Source: Rickettsiales bacterium (GTDB lineage: Bacteria; Pseudomonadota; Alphaproteobacteria; Rs-D84). From it: DNA of 35,994 bases. The notes under the pieces were generated by a model. That model worked only from the letters and a program-made list of their open reading frames with translations. It was not told the origin of the DNA and did not search any database. Shown one piece after another: positions 3,769-35,994 of this stretch (positions are counted from its first letter, which is position 1; every line of letters begins with the position of its first letter). The position numbers were made by a program, and so were the translations under genes. Location: NCBI GenBank assembly GCA_031263295.1, contig JAISGC010000057.1, forward strand, positions 1-35,994, read 5' to 3'.

Positions 3769-3864
3769 TTTTAATGACTAATGACTAATAACTAATGTCT
3801 AATTACTAATAAAATGCCGCCGATTAGACACTAGTAATTAGTCATTAGTTATTAGTCATTAAAA
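3769..3864. repeat. heptamer-armed hairpin (AATGACT) between tRNA-Cys and queH
   Basis: TTTTAATGACTAATGACTAATAACTAATGTCTAATTACTA...TAGTAATTAGTCATTAGTTATTAGTCATTAAAA. Confidence 0.9.
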
Positions 3865-11091: not shown

Positions 11092-12611
11092 GCCCAGATT
11101 TCGAGAATCTGGTCGCGGACGGATTGGATTTGGGCGGCAGGGGCGGATTCGGAAATCATTGCGTCCAGCTGCTTTTTAAGCGCGATTTCGCGAATGACCT
11201 TTTTCGCCGTTTCCTCTGTCATCCTTGATTCGTAAGGATCGGAGGGGTCGGCCGCGCCCAAAAGCTCGAAGTTGTCGCCGTAAAGCTCCGGGAACTTTCG
11301 CGCGATTTCATTCACAAGGTGCGCGGCGCGGTCGGTCGGATCGGGCGCCCGCATCTCCGGCTTTATTTCGCGGCGGTATTTGTTCCACTGCTCCCATTCT
11401 TTGTTTTTAAGGACCAGAAGGTATTCGTTCTTTAACATCAGGTCCGGGATTTTTTCGTATTCCGCGCGGAGCCACCGGTCCGCGTTCACCCGGCCGCTTT
11501 CGGTCATAACCGGATAATTGTTATTCGCGAGCGTCCAGACGAAATCGGGAAGCGCCGCGGCCGCGTTTATTATCGGATCCATCGAGCCGCCCGCCGTCAG
11601 GATTTCGTCCGGGTCTTTGCCGCCGTCTACGAAAGCAAATCTTATCGTATGCTCGGCTTTCAGCAGCGGCATAACCAGGCCCGCCGCCCGCGCCGCCGCC
11701 TTTTGCCCTGCGGTGTCGCCGTCGAAGCAGAAGACCAATTCTTTCGCATATTTCAGTAATATTTCGATGTGCTCCGCGGTCAGTGCCGTGCCCAAGGGCG
11801 CGATGGTTTCGCCGTATCCGTGCGTCTGCATCTGCATGCAATCTATTTGCCCCTCGACCACAATCGCGCGTTTTTTCAGCCGGATTTCGGGCAGGGCGAA
11901 GTTGATTCCAAATAGCGTTCGCCTTTTGGCGAAGAACTCGGTTTCGGCTATGTTCATATATTTGGGCTCGCTGCCGTCAAGCGACCGGCCCGAAAACGCG
12001 ACCACGCGGCCGCGGATGTCGATTATCGGAAACATCAATCGGTTGCGGAAAAAGTCATAGTCCGCGCCGCCGTGGGTCGAATGGCGGGTCAGCCCGGCCG
12101 CCAATCCGTCGGGGCCGAAGCGGGCGGCGACGGGGCTGTTTTTCGGAGCATATCCGAGGCCGTATTTTTCGACGACCGCCGCGGGAAGTTTCCGACGCGC
12201 CAAATATTCCGCCGCCGGGGAGCCGGGCAGGGCGGCGATATAGATATTCATGGCCGCCGCCATCGTGTCGAAATATTTATTCTCGCGGGATTCTTCTTCC
12301 GGGTCGCGGGGGCGAAAATCGGGCATTTTCATTCCGGCGATTCCGGCCAGCTCCTTTATCGCGTCGATGTATCCCATTCCGAACTTTTTCATTAAAAATG
12401 TTATGACATCGCCGCCTTCGCCGCAGCCGAAGCACTTGAAGATTCCGCGCTCTTCGGAGACCGAAAAACTCGGCGTCTTCTCGTTATGAAACGGGCAGCA
12501 GCCCCACCAGTTCTGGCCCTTGGGTTTCAGCGGCACCGACCGGCCGATTATGTCCACGATGGACACGCGGCTTTTGAGCTGTTCGACGAAGGGTTTTAGG
12601 TTTTCGGACAT
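11088..12611 (-). CDS. dnaG: DNA primase
   Basis: CPFHNEKTPSF...CFGC Zn ribbon, FRNRLMFPI, PKYMN, VEGQID, CFDGDTAG TOPRIM; start at MSENLK. Confidence 0.96.
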   Translation of the reverse strand: MSENLKPFVEQLKSRVSIVDIIGRSVPLKPKGQNWWGCCPFHNEKTPSFSVSEERGIFKCFGCGEGGDVITFLMKKFGMGYIDAIKELAGIAGMKMPDFRPRDPEEESRENKYFDTMAAAMNIYIAALPGSPAAEYLARRKLPAAVVEKYGLGYAPKNSPVAARFGPDGLAAGLTRHSTHGGADYDFFRNRLMFPIIDIRGRVVAFSGRSLDGSEPKYMNIAETEFFAKRRTLFGINFALPEIRLKKRAIVVEGQIDCMQMQTHGYGETIAPLGTALTAEHIEILLKYAKELVFCFDGDTAGQKAAARAAGLVMPLLKAEHTIRFAFVDGGKDPDEILTAGGSMDPIINAAAALPDFVWTLANNNYPVMTESGRVNADRWLRAEYEKIPDLMLKNEYLLVLKNKEWEQWNKYRREIKPEMRAPDPTDRAAHLVNEIARKFPELYGDNFELLGAADPSDPYESRMTEETAKKVIREIALKKQLDAMISESAPAAQIQSVRDQILEIWA

Positions 12612-12668
12612 TTGAGTTCGAGTTTGAGTTTGAGTGGAGCTCGACTCAAACTCCAACTCGAACTCAAA
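12611..12668. repeat. hexamer-armed hairpin (GAGTTT) filling the whole topA-dnaG spacer
   Basis: TTTGAGTTCGAGTTTGAGTTTGAGT-GGAGCTCG-ACTCAAACTCCAACTCGAACTCAAA. Confidence 0.9.
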
Positions 12669-16100: not shown

Positions 16101-16220
16101 AGAGAATAAGAGAATAAGAGAATAAGAGAATAAGAGAATGGAACTTGCGGAGTCGCAAACGCCATTCTCTTATTCTCTGCAAACGCGAAGCGTTTGCATT
16201 CTCTTATTCTCTAATTCTCT
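16101..16220. repeat. octamer-armed hairpin (AGAGAATA), 5 vs 5 units, with a small nested hairpin
   Basis: (AGAGAATA)5 GAAC...CCATTCTCTTATTCTCT [GCAAACGCGAAGCGTTTGC] ATTCTCTTATTCTCTAATTCTCT; overlaps the mrdA TAG. Confidence 0.9.
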
Positions 16221-25377: not shown

Positions 25378-26384
25378 AAACTATAAAAATATCCGGCGTA
25401 GGTGTTCACAGCGGAAAAAAATCCGTTATGGAAATAACGCCGACCAAATCCGGCGGCATAGTTTTTGTCCGTGACGGCGTTCGCATTCCGGCGAGATTCG
25501 ACAATGTCGGAAATGCCATGTTGAGGAACACCACCATCGGGACCGCGCCGAACGAAGTCCAGACCATCGAGCATCTGATGGCGGCGCTTTTCGTTTCGGG
25601 CGTCGCCGACTGCGAGATAAAAATCGATAATTCCGAGACGCCGATTCTGGACGGCTCGGCCGCGGAGCTGATAAAATTATTAAAACCAATTGCGGAAAAA
25701 AGCCGGGCGCCATACCTTGTTATAAAAAAGCCCGTCATTGCCAGGCAGTCTGAATCGATGAAAAAAATGCCGGTCCTTTTGAGGTTTTTATCCAAAACAG
25801 CCGGGTTTTTTAAGGGGCGAAAACTGGACGGATGGGTCGGGTTGTCGCCGGTCCGCGGGCGCAAGTTGGAGGTCGCTGCGCGCCTTATATATAAGGAGAG
25901 GATTATCGGCGACCAATCGTTCGGCTTTGTTTTCGATTACGACGACTTCGCGAAATCGGCCGCCGATTTTGCGAAAAATATCGCCCGGTCCCGGACCTTC
26001 GGAAAGGCCGGGGAATGGGAATGGTTGAAGGCGCATGGAATGGGCCGCGGCGTCGACGAGACGAATGTCATAGCGCTCGGCACAATCGGCGATTTGGAGC
26101 GGCTGCATAAAATCGGAATCGGGAAAGGCATAAAAAAAAGCGCGTTGAAGGCGCGCGGCGAAAACGAGGTCGTCGCGCTGAACGGGCTGTTTTATCCCGA
26201 CGAGTTCGTCCGGCACAAAATCATAGACGCGGTCGGCGACCTTTACACATCGGGCTTCCGCATAGTCGGAAAGCTTGAATCATACAAGGGCTCGCACGCT
26301 ATGAACAATATCGTTCTTCGGAAACTTTTCGCCGACCCGGAGAATTATGATATAATTTCAGAGAATAAGAGAATAAGAGAATAA
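25374..26384 (+). CDS. lpxC: UDP-3-O-acyl-GlcNAc deacetylase
   Basis: GVGVHSG, TIEHLMAAL, PILDGS, ARSRTFG, DEFVRHKIIDAVGDL, GSH; ATGA overlap with lpxK. Confidence 0.92.
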   Translation: MKTIKISGVGVHSGKKSVMEITPTKSGGIVFVRDGVRIPARFDNVGNAMLRNTTIGTAPNEVQTIEHLMAALFVSGVADCEIKIDNSETPILDGSAAELIKLLKPIAEKSRAPYLVIKKPVIARQSESMKKMPVLLRFLSKTAGFFKGRKLDGWVGLSPVRGRKLEVAARLIYKERIIGDQSFGFVFDYDDFAKSAADFAKNIARSRTFGKAGEWEWLKAHGMGRGVDETNVIALGTIGDLERLHKIGIGKGIKKSALKARGENEVVALNGLFYPDEFVRHKIIDAVGDLYTSGFRIVGKLESYKGSHAMNNIVLRKLFADPENYDIISENKRIRE

Positions 26385-26478
26385 GAGAATGGAACTTGTT
26401 AAAAGGTTTTTGTTAAAAATTAAAGCACTGCGGTTATCGCAGGCTCCATTCTCTTATTCTCTTATTCTCTTATTCTCT
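26360..26478. repeat. octamer-armed hairpin (AGAGAATA) spanning the lpxC end and the lipoprotein start
   Basis: (AGAGAATA)3 AGAGAATGGAAC...GCTCCATTCTCT(TATTCTCT)3; loop similar to 35877-35994. Confidence 0.92.
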
Positions 26479-26914: not shown

Positions 26915-27766
26915 ATGAAAAATAAAATGCTCTTTATAACATCCGACCTTTCGCGGCAGTTGATAATTCTGGCGAAAAAAATCGCGCGCAGCGGGACGCC
27001 CGTCGCGATCGCCGCGCCGGAAAACAAAAACAGCCAGTTTTTCGACGGGCCGGAGATACGGCTTCGCCGCGCGTTCGGGCATCTGTTCGGAAAAAATAAA
27101 ATCCGCGGCTTCGGTTCGGCCATCGCCTTCGACAAGCCCGCGGCGCGCCTGGCCGAGCGGGCCGGAATCCCCGCCTCCGGATACAACGGGGGCGTCGGCA
27201 TAGACCTTTCCGTCTGGAATCCGGGCGCCGTTTCTGGAAACCGCCAGACCATGCTCTTGGGCAAATACAACATCGCGCCGCATCAGAAAATGATAATCGC
27301 GACCGACCCGGACGAAAAGAGCATTCGCGCTCTGATCCTTGGTTTGGAAGGATCAGAGAGAAACGACTTTGTGATTGCTCTTTACGGCGCCTTGACCAAA
27401 AAGCAGGCGCGGCGCATATCCCGGCGCCTCGAAGACGAGCCGCGGATAATATACCTCGGCAACGAGCCGGACCTGCCGACGCTGATGCGCGCGAGCTTCG
27501 CCGTTATGTCTTTTTCCGATTCCGCGAAGTTTTACAAAATCGCCGCGCTCGCCATGGGCCGCATGACTGCATGGAAGAAATCCAAAATCGCCCCGAATGT
27601 CGCGGTGAAAGACGATTTCGCGGCCGCCGCCTTCGCCTTGCTCGATATGCCCGCCAAAGAGCGCGAGCGCTTCGAGAAGGAAAATGTCGTTCGCGCCGCC
27701 CAATTCGATATGGACAAGATTGTCGCGAAGTTGAAAAAATTAGTGCGAGTGCGAGTGGGAGTTTGA
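26915..27766 (+). CDS. GT-B (family 4-like) glycosyltransferase-like protein, degenerate
   Basis: GGVGIDLSVWNP, IIYLGNEPDLPTLMRAS, ALAMG, QFDMDKIV layout. Confidence 0.55.
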   Translation: MKNKMLFITSDLSRQLIILAKKIARSGTPVAIAAPENKNSQFFDGPEIRLRRAFGHLFGKNKIRGFGSAIAFDKPAARLAERAGIPASGYNGGVGIDLSVWNPGAVSGNRQTMLLGKYNIAPHQKMIIATDPDEKSIRALILGLEGSERNDFVIALYGALTKKQARRISRRLEDEPRIIYLGNEPDLPTLMRASFAVMSFSDSAKFYKIAALAMGRMTAWKKSKIAPNVAVKDDFAAAAFALLDMPAKERERFEKENVVRAAQFDMDKIVAKLKKLVRVRVGV

Positions 27767-27833
27767 GTGGCGCTGCCCATTAAATGCAAACGCGATTATA
27801 AGCTCAACTCAAACTCACACTCGAACTCAAACT
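27742..27833. repeat. hexamer-armed hairpin (GAGTGC/GAGTTT), encodes C-terminal VRVRVGV-stop
   Basis: AGTGCGAGTGCGAGTGGGAGTTTGAGT...ACTCAAACTCACACTCGAACTCAAACT. Confidence 0.8.
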
Positions 27834-27853
27834 TTTTATGATATAATCACACT

Positions 27854-28477
27854 ATGAAAAGGTCTTTGCTCTATTTGTTTCTGACGCTCGCCGCGCTGGT
27901 TTATGCGGCGGTCAAATTCGCCGCGTCCGATTCGACCGCGTCCAGGGCGCGGATAATTTCCGACGGGCCGGTCGGCGAAAATCTCCGCGCTTTCGTTTCC
28001 GCGAATGTCGGCAACCCGGATTTGCCGCGCATCGTCGCCGATAACTTTTCCGGCGTCAGATTCGTCTCGGTCAGGAACGATATGAACGGGACCGCCGTCA
28101 TAACCATCCGGCACAAGAAGACCATCGCGGTCTGGACCGACGGCGAGAAATACTATCCGCTGCTTGAAAACGGCGCCCATTTGGACGCGCCTTTCGCGGC
28201 CCGGCCGCAGAGCGTGGTTTTCAAGGGCGCGGTGCCCGCGGATGTTTTGGGCATAATAAAATCGGTCGCGGCCGCGCCGCGGTTTTTCGCGAAGGCGGAC
28301 TTTTTGGAATGGGTGGAGGGTCGGCGCTGGAATGCGATTTTATTCGACAGGGCCAGGGTGATGCTGCCCGATCGCAACGCCGCCGCCGCCATCGCGAAGA
28401 TTGAATCGTCCGGCATTCTGGGCAAAAAGTTTTCCGTCCTGGATCTTCGGGACCCGGAGCGGATGCTGGTCAAATAG
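27854..28477 (+). CDS. ftsQ: cell division protein FtsQ, compact
   Basis: N-terminal TM, POTRA-like segment, WVEGRRWN, LDLRDPER; precedes an ftsA-like gene. Confidence 0.8.
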   Translation: MKRSLLYLFLTLAALVYAAVKFAASDSTASRARIISDGPVGENLRAFVSANVGNPDLPRIVADNFSGVRFVSVRNDMNGTAVITIRHKKTIAVWTDGEKYYPLLENGAHLDAPFAARPQSVVFKGAVPADVLGIIKSVAAAPRFFAKADFLEWVEGRRWNAILFDRARVMLPDRNAAAAIAKIESSGILGKKFSVLDLRDPERMLVK

Positions 28478-28480
28478 GAG

Positions 28481-28608
28481 AATAAAGAATAAAGAATAAA
28501 GAATAAAGAATAAATAGCGGCGCGTTTGCAGGCAGAGCGCATATTGTTGCGTCATAACTTGTCGCCCGTGCATATTTATTCTTTATTCTTTATTCTTTAT
28601 TCTTTATT
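28481..28608. repeat. heptamer-armed hairpin (AATAAAG), perfect 36-bp arms
   Basis: (AATAAAG)4 AATAAATA at 28481-28516 and TATTTATT(CTTTATT)4 at 28573-28608. Confidence 0.95.
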
Positions 28609-28615
28609 AGAAGCA

Positions 28616-30313
28616 TTGTTCGACAATAAACAGACATTTCTTGCGCTCGACATCGGGACCGGCGTGGTCCGCGCGTTCGGCGCCGCCGTCAAGGACGGGC
28701 GGGCGCGGCATTTTTCCTTCGCCGCGTCCGGGGGCGCGATCGCCGAAAATATCATGAACGCCGCCGACGCGGTCGAAAGGGAGCTCGGCGTGAAGTTCCG
28801 GGATGCGGCGATAACCGGCAACCTCGGGGCGGTCGAATCGGTTGTCGCCAAAAACGGCGTCGCCTTTCCGCGCGTTCGCGAAATAACCGAGACGGACGCG
28901 TTCAATGCAATCTGCAATTCGGCCGAGGTCCGCGGCAATCCGGGCATGGTCCTGCATCTTATACCGCTGCAATTTTCGGGCGCGGCGGATGCGGCCGATG
29001 GCGAGATGGCGCCGGGGCGGCCCGCCTTCGGGCGAGTCCTTTCGGTCCGGTTCAATATGCTTTTCGTCGACGGCGCCCGCGTGTCAGAAATCAAGCGCGC
29101 ATTGATGTCGGCCTCCATCCGGCCAGTCGGATTCTATGACCCGATTTATTTATTGGGGCTGCGCTATCACCAGAAAAAGCGGACGGAGATTTTCATAGAC
29201 TTCGGCGCATCCTTTATAAAGGCCGGGGTTATGACCGACCGCGGCCTGACCAAGCGGTTCGATGTCGCGGCGCCTGTCTTTTCGACCGACGAGAAAATCC
29301 GGCTGGCCGTTTTGGAGGACGAGCCCATGGGCTCGGACCGCTATGTCGCCGCGGCCGAAAATATCACGCGCCAGGATGTCTGGGACGAATGGGCCGCGGC
29401 GATGGGCGATGCGGTCGATATTATTTTGGAGAGAGCCGCCGCGCCGGGCGCCGCGATTTTCATATCCGGCGCGGGCGGAAACGCGGAGCATATAAAGTCT
29501 CTGATCCTTGAAAACAAAGGATTGGAGAATATTACGATATTGGATGGGTTCGCGGCGGCCGGATCTTTGGCGCTCCGCGGCGCGGGTTCCGCCGAACCGC
29601 GGTCTGCGACTGCCGCAGGCGGCGCCGCTCCGCGGCGGGCACCGCGCCGCGGGCGTCGGCCGCAGGCCGCGGCCGTTCTGCCGAGCGTTCTGAACTGGGA
29701 CATAAACAACGGATGGGTTTATAAGATGTTTCAGAACGCCGGAATAAAGCGGCTGCACATCGATGTGCAGGACGGCTTCTATACCGCGGCCGTTTCGGGC
29801 GGGGTGCCGGAATTGAAAAAAATCCGCGCGTTGTGGAGGGGCGGGATGCAGGTTCATCTGATGGTCGACGACCCGGCTTCGTGGGCGCAGGTCGTTATGA
29901 AAATCGGCGCGGATACTATTATCGTCCAGGCGGGGACGCGGAACGCCGAGGCCGCGATGACGAAAATAAAGCGGGCGGGCAGGCGGGCCGGATTTGCGAT
30001 TTCGCCGGACTTCGACATCAAAAAATTGCCGAGGCTGATGCTCGCGATGGCGGACGAGATAATCGTGCTCGCGGTCGCGCCCGGCCCGAGCGGACAGGCG
30101 TTCGGGGAGGCGGCGCTGGCGCGCATACGCGCGCTGAAAAACACGCGGACGCGATATAGGTTCGATTACGAGATAATCGCCGACGGCGGGATAAATCCCG
30201 AGACCGCGAAACTCTGCCGGGAAGCGGGCGCGGATGCGGTCGTCAGCGGAAGCTTTCTGCGCAACGCGCCGGATTTCCCGTCCGCGGTCGCGGAACTAAT
30301 TCATAATTCATAA
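28616..30313 (+). CDS. fusion of divergent FtsA with ribulose-phosphate 3-epimerase
   Basis: N-terminal ALDIGT, VLHLIP, FIDFGA, ISGAG actin-fold motifs; C-terminal PSVL, LHIDVQDG, VHLMV, ADGGIN, GADAVVSGS; TTG start at 28616 inferred. Confidence 0.8.
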   Translation: MFDNKQTFLALDIGTGVVRAFGAAVKDGRARHFSFAASGGAIAENIMNAADAVERELGVKFRDAAITGNLGAVESVVAKNGVAFPRVREITETDAFNAICNSAEVRGNPGMVLHLIPLQFSGAADAADGEMAPGRPAFGRVLSVRFNMLFVDGARVSEIKRALMSASIRPVGFYDPIYLLGLRYHQKKRTEIFIDFGASFIKAGVMTDRGLTKRFDVAAPVFSTDEKIRLAVLEDEPMGSDRYVAAAENITRQDVWDEWAAAMGDAVDIILERAAAPGAAIFISGAGGNAEHIKSLILENKGLENITILDGFAAAGSLALRGAGSAEPRSATAAGGAAPRRAPRRGRRPQAAAVLPSVLNWDINNGWVYKMFQNAGIKRLHIDVQDGFYTAAVSGGVPELKKIRALWRGGMQVHLMVDDPASWAQVVMKIGADTIIVQAGTRNAEAAMTKIKRAGRRAGFAISPDFDIKKLPRLMLAMADEIIVLAVAPGPSGQAFGEAALARIRALKNTRTRYRFDYEIIADGGINPETAKLCREAGADAVVSGSFLRNAPDFPSAVAELIHNS

Positions 30314-30486
30314 TTCACAATTCATAATTTTCCCCACCCAAGTTTTTCTAAATCTCGCGGGCTTTGCCCGCTCGATAAGAAAAACTTTCCCGCCCCGCTG
30401 GACCCTGCGGGTCCGCGGGGCAGGAGGGAGCGCGACGGCAAGCAACAAATTATGAATTATGCATTATGAATTATGAATTATGAATT
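30298..30486. repeat. heptamer-armed hairpin (AATTCAT/AATTATG) enclosing a REP-like element
   Basis: AATTCATAATTCATAATTCACAATTCATAATT...AATTATGAATTATGCATTATGAATTATGAATTATGAATT; contains the ftsA-rpe stop. Confidence 0.9.
30332..30425. repeat. REP-like palindrome family 3 (copy 1, nested)
   Basis: CCCCACCCAAGTTTTTCTA...AAGAAAAACT-TTCCCGCCCC...GGGGCAGGA; similar to 33515-33601. Confidence 0.8.
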
Positions 30487-35583: not shown

Positions 35584-35901
35584 ATGGAAAGGTTCGAGAG
35601 TCTTGTTGGATTTTACGGCGCGGTCAAAACCATCGCGTCCGCCGTCTGCGTCGAGAAGGGCGGCATCGACATAGACAACTATGCCGGGCGCTTTTTTATC
35701 GCCGACTTGCTTGAACTTATCGTCGCATACGGCGAGAAGGCTGGCGCGAAAAACCTGGACGCCCTGCGCCGCGAATTGGCCGCCCGCGCCGCCGACATCA
35801 CTCCGACCAACAAGCCGATTTACGAGATGTCGCTTGAAGAGTTTGAGAAGTTTATAGGCGGCGGCTCCGCCGCCGAAGAGAATAAGAGAATAAGAGAATA
35901 A
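35584..35901 (+). CDS. hypothetical protein; C-terminus ENKRIRE encoded by a repeat
   Basis: codon style matches neighbours; TATAAT 7 nt before ATG 35584. Confidence 0.7.
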   Translation: MERFESLVGFYGAVKTIASAVCVEKGGIDIDNYAGRFFIADLLELIVAYGEKAGAKNLDALRRELAARAADITPTNKPIYEMSLEEFEKFIGGGSAAEENKRIRE

Positions 35902-35994
35902 GAGAATGGAACTTGTCAAAAGGTTTTTGCATAAAATAAAAGCGGCACGCATATTGCGCGCTCCATTCTCTTATTCTCTTATTCTCTTATTCTC
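35877..35994. repeat. octamer-armed hairpin (AGAGAATA), close homolog of 26360-26478, cut by the window end
   Basis: (AGAGAATA)3 AGAGAATGGAACTTGTCAAAAGGTTTTTG...GCTCCATTCTCTTATTCTCTTATTCTCTTATTCTC. Confidence 0.92.

Follow-up and report, generated by a model that had tools for sequence, protein, structure and literature searches.

We describe here a translation initiation region that is split by a dispersed repeat. It lies between an ftsQ-like and an ftsA-like gene on contig JAISGC010000057.1 of a Rickettsiales bacterium, and the whole contig, with its 35,994 nucleotides (nt), is the window analysed here. A Shine-Dalgarno (SD)-like AGGAG overlaps the ftsQ stop codon, a palindrome of 128 nt follows directly, and the start codon of the ftsA-like gene, apparently a fusion with a ribulose-phosphate 3-epimerase gene (ftsA-rpe), stands 7 nt behind the palindrome. 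This repeat-borne split initiation region is real and it is recurrent in the genome, while its function is something that we infer. Our reading is that ftsA-rpe is initiated across the base of the looped-out hairpin, by SD bridging, by terminating ribosomes or by both, and we give it a probability of about one half.

All parts of the junction are on the forward strand. The ftsQ-like gene (27854-28477; 207 amino acids), taken from the list of open reading frames (ORFs), is recognized by the Pfam model FtsQ_DivIB_C (E = 4.8e-5, 24.6 bits with a cut-off of 21). It ends with ...RMLVK-TAG, and the C-terminal LVK-stop is found at the same position in relatives. The stop codon TAG (28475-28477) and the SD-like AGGAG (28476-28480) overlap in the hexamer TAGGAG (28475-28480). 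The next base opens an inverted repeat (28481-28516 and 28573-28608) with arms of 36 nt that are 100% complementary and stand 56 nt apart. Inverted-repeat and tandem-repeat scans resolve the 5' arm into (AATAAAG)x4 followed by AATAAATA and the 3' arm, its perfect complement, into TATTTATT followed by (CTTTATT)x4; each arm holds about five perfect heptamer copies (Tandem Repeats Finder: period 7, 5.1 copies, 100% matches) and has a G+C content of 11%. The loop (28517-28572; 56 nt) is G+C-rich, has small stems of its own and contains an in-frame TTG at 28526. Behind the 3' arm follow the 7-nt spacer AGAAGCA (28609-28615) and TTG 28616, where the ftsA-rpe frame of 565 amino acids starts (28616-30313; start placed by alignment of homologues). 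The hairpin is thus inserted in what would otherwise be a 10-nt ftsQ-ftsA spacer, with the stop codon 3 nt before the stem and the start codon 7 nt after it. In the linear sequence AGGAG ends 135 nt 5' of TTG 28616, too distant for an SD, and stop and start are 138 nt apart; with the hairpin looped out the latter distance is 10 nt. Deletion of the hairpin in silico leaves TAG-GAG-AGAAGCA-TTG, that is AGGAG-7 nt-TTG. This spacing had been called typical in an earlier note on this DNA, and it fits SD use in the genome, where G peaks at -11 to -9 and most GGAG motifs stop 5-9 nt short of the start codon. Inspection of the sequence found none of the SD 4-mers AAGG, AGGA, GGAG and GAGG in the 3' arm or in the spacer, nor before the in-loop TTG 28526, in agreement with the earlier claim that no other good SD precedes TTG 28616. 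The positions given there for TAG and AGGAG, the 36-bp stem, AGAAGCA and the in-frame TTG were all exact on re-reading.

The predicted fold of the junction is unusually stable. The segment 28460-28640 folds with -68.6 kcal/mol, compared to -33.75 +/- 3.71 kcal/mol for 200 dinucleotide shuffles (z = -9.4; 0/200 as low), and the hairpin alone is predicted at -60.8 kcal/mol. In the predicted ensemble the outermost 6 bp of the stem are base paired with P = 0.97 (P(unpaired) 0.03), while AGGAG (mean P(unpaired) 0.58 in the ensemble of 28400-28700) and the spacer (0.55) are both about half open. A stable hairpin would therefore leave 7 nt between SD and start, which falls into the 5-11 nt expected of a hairpin-bridged spacing. 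Two other identities of the element were considered and rejected. An intrinsic terminator would need a G+C-rich stem and a U tract, and with its 11% G+C arms the big stem is not listed by the terminator scan. A miniature inverted-repeat transposable element (MITE) would have terminal inverted repeats, a target-site duplication and a conserved interior; against this speak the unique loop and the flanks GGAG and AGAAG, which share at most 'AG'; the copies at rpsJ, fmt and lptB likewise reveal no consistent duplication. A promoter scan found no promoter-like site inside or after the hairpin, the only ones preceding ftsQ, and an Rfam scan of the window returned two tRNAs and nothing else.

Palindromes with tandem-heptamer arms form a family that is spread over the genome, and the hairpin is one member; arms are shared within the family but loops are not. 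The genome comprises 987 kb in 114 contigs (54.6% G+C, 87.6% complete), and a scan for inverted repeats (arms of at least 18 nt, at least 85% paired, loop of at most 300 nt) revealed 342 of them, including 119 with arms of tandem 6-8-nt units, of which there are about a dozen kinds. Used as a 144-nt query, the ftsA hairpin matches 11 other loci with its arms (AATAAAG/AATAATG), and no copy of its loop was found elsewhere in the genome at E < 0.05. Since the hairpin is also missing from three junctions of the same genus, the proposal that it is mobile holds in the sense of a dispersed repeat. Tandem-armed palindromes lie between co-oriented genes in 76 of the 119 cases, often occupying the entire gap. 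Gene calls came from our own codon-usage caller, which is crude (893 genes, 81.5% coverage).

Recurrence of the split layout was analysed by taking each tandem-armed hairpin on both strands, which gave 222 oriented flanks after removal of 16 that lay less than 25 nt from a contig end. A contiguous SD has no room in 29 of these flanks, where the 3' base of the hairpin is followed within 10 nt by the first start of the downstream ORF. An SD was scored as one of the four 4-mers at a spacing of 5-11. By this measure 215/604 genes away from hairpins (36%) have an SD, compared to 30/604 (5%) when the same test is made 30 nt further upstream; 16S rRNA was not found in the 87.6%-complete genome, and SD use is judged here from this 4-mer enrichment and not from an anti-SD. 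Deletion of the hairpin restores an SD in 8 of the 29 start-abutting flanks (28%), but in only 7.8% of the 193 others and in 11.3% of the 42 control flanks that follow a stop (binomial p = 0.0013 and 0.013); among start-abutting flanks that follow a stop the count is 6/22 (p = 0.031). An SD ending 0-5 nt from the 5' base is present in 7/29 start-abutting flanks versus 11/193 other flanks (Fisher p = 0.0036). A co-oriented upstream stop lies at most 15 nt from the 5' base of 22 of the 29 start-abutting hairpins, and for these the stop-to-start distance is -17 to 17 nt when looped out versus 56-159 nt in the linear sequence. The remaining 223 inverted repeats include 23 start-abutting ones, four of them flagged with a restored SD, of which two are real. 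Contigs C16 and C96 were rejected as carriers of split sites, since their 'SD' arises solely through the joining of the flanks.

The order SD, hairpin, 6-9 nt and start is present at about ten genes, including rpsJ, fmt and lptB. Between tuf and rpsJ (C32:10969-11038 in this genome; locus L030, 1665-1748) the sequence reads TAAGGAG, a 66-nt hairpin of GAGTTT units and ATATAAAG-ATG, and the rpsJ start agrees with the profile (S10 residues 1-102 on profile positions 1-102). Between def and fmt, ...GGAGGTAA at the end of def is followed by 96 nt and CACAAA-ATG, with fmt residues 1-218 aligned to profile positions 1-229. At lptB AAGGAG, 94 nt and AGTAAAAA-ATG follow each other, and a secreted-protein gene on contig C12 has TAAAGGAGGAC, 90 nt and AACAGAT-ATG. 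A native junction of the genome that is free of a hairpin reads TAG-GAG-AGAAAA-ATG, and an SD is present in 13/28 junctions with gaps of 4-15 nt. Genome-wide, the AGGACT-unit family is the most start-linked, with a start 3-10 nt after the 3' base in 12 of 35 copies, 11 of these 12 at 5-10 nt. Because its 5' arm begins with the SD-like AGGA, this element may carry an SD of its own that is sequestered in the stem.

How such a junction might be translated follows from its geometry. In the ftsQ-ftsA transcript the two arms would snap into a hairpin of about -61 kcal/mol and loop out the 128 nt, and folding would re-create a compact junction in space, with both the SD-7 nt-start and the stop-10 nt-start arrangement. 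A 30S subunit could then pair with AGGAG and reach TTG, as in the split ribosome-binding sites of the phage T4 genes 38 and 25, or ribosomes could finish ftsQ at the foot of the stem and re-initiate from there at TTG. Folding would in this way make the insertion nearly neutral, which would explain why palindromes have colonized many stop-start junctions of this small genome, with rpsJ, fmt and lptB among them. In phage T4, a hairpin that stands between SD and AUG has been described to enhance initiation at two genes; it shortens the distance from 22 to 5 nt at gene 38 and from 27 to 11 nt at gene 25 (PMC3014915; PMC7297116). The original work on these split sites (Gold, 1988; Nivinskas et al., 1999; Malys and Nivinskas, 2009) is cited here as described in the same two papers, which confirm the earlier appeal to structure-bridged SDs in T4 genes 25 and 38. 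As far as the T4 sites are described there, the likeness is close: the SD is too far away linearly, a stable hairpin restores 5-11 nt, no other SD is available, and gene 25 also lies at an intercistronic junction (gene 26-25). There are, however, clear differences. Here 128 nt with a 36-bp stem would be looped out, compared to about 16-17 nt in T4; the element is a dispersed genomic repeat that is not conserved in relatives, while the T4 structures are locus-specific and conserved; and the host is a cell with housekeeping genes, for which function is deduced from the sequence, whereas it was tested in T4. The arrangement is a much larger cellular variant of the T4 38/25 sites, in which a repeat splits the initiation regions of housekeeping genes. 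The literature on split, discontinuous or bipartite ribosome-binding sites and on repeats between SD and start yielded the T4 and thrS cases and no dispersed repeats that split cellular ribosome-binding sites.

Re-initiation coupled to termination, again across the base of the hairpin, accounts for the pattern at least as well as SD bridging does, because a bridged SD is present in 8/29 start-abutting hairpins while a stop at the 5' base is present in 22/29. Stop and start flank the stem at 3 and 7 nt, and in relatives the two genes overlap (ATGA) or are separated by 2-9 nt. In tested bacterial gene pairs re-initiation coupling collapses at a linear distance of about 20 nt (PMC10666635; PMC12548453), and the 138 nt found here are far beyond this, so that coupling would need the fold. 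We found no demonstration of re-initiation across a closed hairpin base in bacteria in the literature searched. In cauliflower mosaic virus ribosomes are shunted over a hairpin after a short ORF. Extended to the genome, the idea would be that ribosomes routinely cross the closed base of repeat hairpins of 50-130 nt, which hold an SD or a just-terminated ribosome beside the start; we put this forward tentatively, as possible rather than probable.

The gene behind the hairpin had been labelled ftsA, and this label stands in part. Single-sequence searches with Pfam and NCBIfam do not recognize the N-terminal 355 amino acids, and residues 356-547 match Pfam Rpe (E = 9e-34). A profile of the 17-sequence family, however, matches FtsA crystal structures with E = 3e-21 to 4e-14 over profile positions 7-325 (3wt0 with E = 2.8e-21, 7q6f and 1e4f) and Rpe structures over positions 380-588 (E = 4e-61), and from these matches we conclude that the downstream gene is probably a conserved FtsA-Rpe fusion. 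With TIGR01174 the relatives reach 43-87 bits, short of the cut-off of 175.85, and of three copies tested with the NCBIfam ftsA model this one alone was missed. A search of 41 related genomes with the N-terminal 355 amino acids gave matches in 23, the present genome included; 21 of the 24 other genomes of the same family have one, and nearly all of the matches are open frames of 555-623 amino acids. A search for the fusion protein in a collection of genome contigs found no relative. The FtsA-like domain and ribulose-phosphate 3-epimerase are joined in one protein of 552-594 amino acids throughout the bacterial family (28616-30313 here; loci L010-L028), and a basic linker occupies the place of FtsA's membrane-targeting tail. 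We know of no description of an FtsA-Rpe fusion, although no literature search was aimed at it. A 14-residue segment (alignment columns 224-237, in the GQ..IT..IA region) that is present in 16/16 homologues is missing here at about residues 223-224. A further palindrome (30297-30480; TAATTCA units, 34-nt arms, 116-nt loop) starts within the last codons of ftsA-rpe, so that its 5' arm includes the stop codon (30311-30313).

The start codon itself is well placed. In the alignment TTG 28616 coincides with the first residue of 16 homologues (column 1), in line with the expectation that it marks the N-terminus of the FtsA part, and the three copies of the same genus begin with TTG or GTG. The N-terminus predicted from it is (M)FDNKQTFLALDIGT, and the N-terminal peptide would read (M)FDNKQTFLALDIGTGVVR, compared to MQAERILL... 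from TTG 28526. The longest ORF does open at the in-loop TTG 28526, and gene callers are apt to choose the wrong start in such genes.

The ftsQ-ftsA junction was compared in 18 genomes. In ten of them the genes overlap or are at most 9 nt apart (-4 to 9 nt), with ATGA shared by three; three junctions have 30-41 nt and no strong hairpin; and five carry hairpins of unrelated sequence, namely the present genome, G005 (with a weaker one), G006, G015 and G021. In G021 the ftsQ stop is within the base of the stem and ATG follows 3 nt after it. These five hairpins look like independent insertions, and given the ten close junctions and the unrelated hairpins the ancestral junction was therefore probably tightly coupled. 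The prediction that an ortholog without the hairpin should read AGGAG-N7-start holds in part: the three hairpin-free junctions of the same genus read TGAGG-N7-GTG (G002), which matches it, and TAG-AAA-TTG and TAA-AA-TTG, which have no SD. Exact-pattern scans of metagenome contigs for close strains with or without the hairpin gave no hit apart from one chance match with unrelated flanks (locus L081). Between tuf and rpsJ the gap varies from 18 to 247 nt in 20 relatives, many of which carry other hairpins.

Several points weigh against initiation across the hairpin base. The arrangement is not conserved, the hairpin being missing in 3/3 same-genus junctions, and no clear SD was found 5' of the junction hairpins in the four other genera (G005, G006, G015 and G021). 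In the 20 relatives any visible rpsJ SD is downstream of the tuf hairpin, and a sample of G006 (351 kb of about 1.1 Mb) has 24 tandem-armed hairpins, two of them start-abutting and none with an SD, which is too few to judge. In the present genome 21/29 start-abutting hairpins are without a bridged SD, so that an SD is not required for genes placed in this way. Stem complementarity is 93.0% in start-abutting hairpins and 93.3% in the rest (Mann-Whitney p = 0.65), giving no sign of selection. With crude gene calls some of the first starts after a hairpin are probably wrong, and at two junctions, on C91 and C28, the more likely start is an ATG located 11-13 nt further downstream that has an AGGTGA of its own. 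The 128 nt looped out are about eightfold the roughly 16-17 nt of the T4 cases, a 36-bp helix would have to fit between the SD duplex and the P site, and a perfect duplex of this length is an expected substrate of RNase III, which the genome encodes. The pattern could also be pure history, a recent insertion whose SD has yet to decay. A run search found no RNA sequencing run that contains 27854-29400; the only run with this segment is a DNA run labelled termite gut metagenome, probably the source sample. The initiation across a looped-out hairpin that the earlier note proposed is partly supported, namely in its geometry, its start codon and its recurrence, while the SD is a putative one for which neither the four other genera nor the 21/29 hairpins without a bridged SD speak.

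The strongest of the competing explanations, though in itself unlikely, is that the upstream SD is irrelevant. RNase III would cut the duplex, or the hairpin would stay closed, and initiation would proceed SD-independently from a short A/U-rich leader, in the manner of most other genes abutting such hairpins, the hairpin serving as operon punctuation or as an mRNA-stability element. An RNase III gene is present (C92:24675-25013; Ribonucleas_3_3, 80.9 bits, above the cut-off) and the 36 perfect bp exceed the at least 20 bp that the enzyme needs. About 64% of the genes away from hairpins have no SD 4-mer, a bridged SD is missing in 21/29 start-abutting hairpins, and 5/29 have neither an SD nor a nearby stop. 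Intercistronic RNase III sites of phage T7 offer a parallel. In Neisseria, mRNA hairpins of Correia elements are described to bind RNase III and to be cleaved or protected (PMC2649163). However, SD 4-mers are 2.5- to 3.5-fold enriched at the bridged position compared to control flanks. Once the duplex is cut, the two fragments would be joined by no more than the outer 12 bp, a weak link (-8.8 kcal/mol), so that cutting would sever the upstream determinants and not help them. TTG moreover initiates weakly where the leader is very short or lacks an SD.

It is less probable still that the insertion is recent and mildly harmful, with ftsA-rpe poorly translated and its FtsA part decaying in this lineage or in a population variant. 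Arms that are identical in 36/36 positions suggest a young insertion, and the 14 missing residues, the failure of the NCBIfam ftsA model on this copy alone and the origin of the metagenome-assembled genome (MAG) from a single sample at 87.6% completeness would agree with decay. Yet the 565-codon frame is intact, and this copy keeps all 48 listed invariant columns of the family. No Met, the one start codon considered here, was seen near the domain boundary in the alignment, and the Rpe domain (E = 9e-34) therefore most likely depends on TTG 28616. Furthermore, rpsJ, fmt and lptB have the same layout and cannot all be dying.

A start within the loop, at TTG 28526 or at another in-loop TTG or GTG, would add about 30 residues from the loop and the 3' arm, and we consider it very improbable. 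The frame is open from 28526, and the palindrome at 26360-26478 has an ATG (26389) in one arm; but such an extension is found in 0/16 homologues, all of which begin 8-11 residues before the LDIGT motif, there is no SD before 28526, and a hydrophobic IYSLFFILYSLL stretch would sit on a cytoplasmic actin-fold protein. The least probable explanation, excision of the hairpin from the RNA with rejoining of its ends or an assembly artefact, has in its favor only the tidy sequence left by removal, and meets at least 119 such palindromes with different loops across 114 contigs, related palindromes in independently assembled genomes of other genera and an independent contig set of run X1 that contains 99% of the sampled words of 27854-29400. 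To our knowledge no bacterial activity excises and rejoins such hairpins, nothing that we saw implies one, and the RNA-level removal suggested before is thus without support.

Initiation across the hairpin base, if true, would make this the largest known split initiation region and the first to be bridged by a mobile repeat family rather than by a locus-specific structure; it would also be a bacterial counterpart of ribosome shunting in viruses. It would mean that the initiation complex tolerates structure between SD and start far larger than in the T4 cases, and does so in cellular housekeeping genes too. A rule by which folding makes the insertion invisible would let selfish palindromes occupy the SD-start spacers of essential genes (rpsJ, fmt, lptB, ftsA-rpe) and would explain how dispersed palindromes can saturate operon junctions in a reduced genome while polycistronic expression survives. 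The short fragment of stop, SD, hairpin and start is a clean and easily cloned system that can separate SD bridging, coupled re-initiation and RNase III processing.

Tandem heptamer arrays near genes are known from other bacteria, and the STRR heptamer repeats of cyanobacteria are comparable. REP elements near stop codons are said to stall ribosomes, as Liang, Rudd and Deutscher reportedly found in 2015. In Xanthomonas, arrays of the heptamer GGGAATC form 70-75 convergent pairs (PMC4692102). As described there, these are likewise intergenic convergent 7-nt units with the potential for stem-loops, often 0-50 bp from a stop or start (PMC4692102), while the present genome has about 12 unit sequences within 1 Mb and A/T-rich arms that do not form G4 structures, and many of its copies occupy the entire gap from stop to start. 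The Correia (NEMIS) elements of Neisseria are similar as dispersed inverted repeats that appear in mRNA as hairpins beside genes, are bound by RNase III and alter the expression of neighbors (PMC2649163). By that account their core is conserved and they come with a target duplication and with promoter or IHF sites, whereas here only the arms are shared and neither a target duplication nor a promoter-like site was found.

Eight further palindromes of the window with tandem 6-8-nt arms of various units, nearly all in gene gaps, are located at 2255-2338, 2858-2955, 3769-3864, 12611-12668, 16105-16232, 20300-20402, 27742-27833 and 35876-35994. The contig ends inside the last of these, and contigs C18, C35, C76 and C79 end in the same AAGAGAAT element; such repeats therefore break the assembly. 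The palindrome at 26360-26478 is built of AGAGAATA units, has ATG 26389 in its 5' arm and encodes with its 3' arm the hydrophobic core (SYSLILLFSLTAC) of a lipoprotein-like signal peptide. EF-Tu of this genome shares 86% identity with that of a gut MAG labelled Alphaproteobacteria; for the other 79 matches listed, mostly from Proteobacteria, the identity is 68-75%. Just upstream of a tRNA gene (23543-23616), an A/T-rich unit of 83 nt is repeated 1.9 times (23325-23488; 91% matches).

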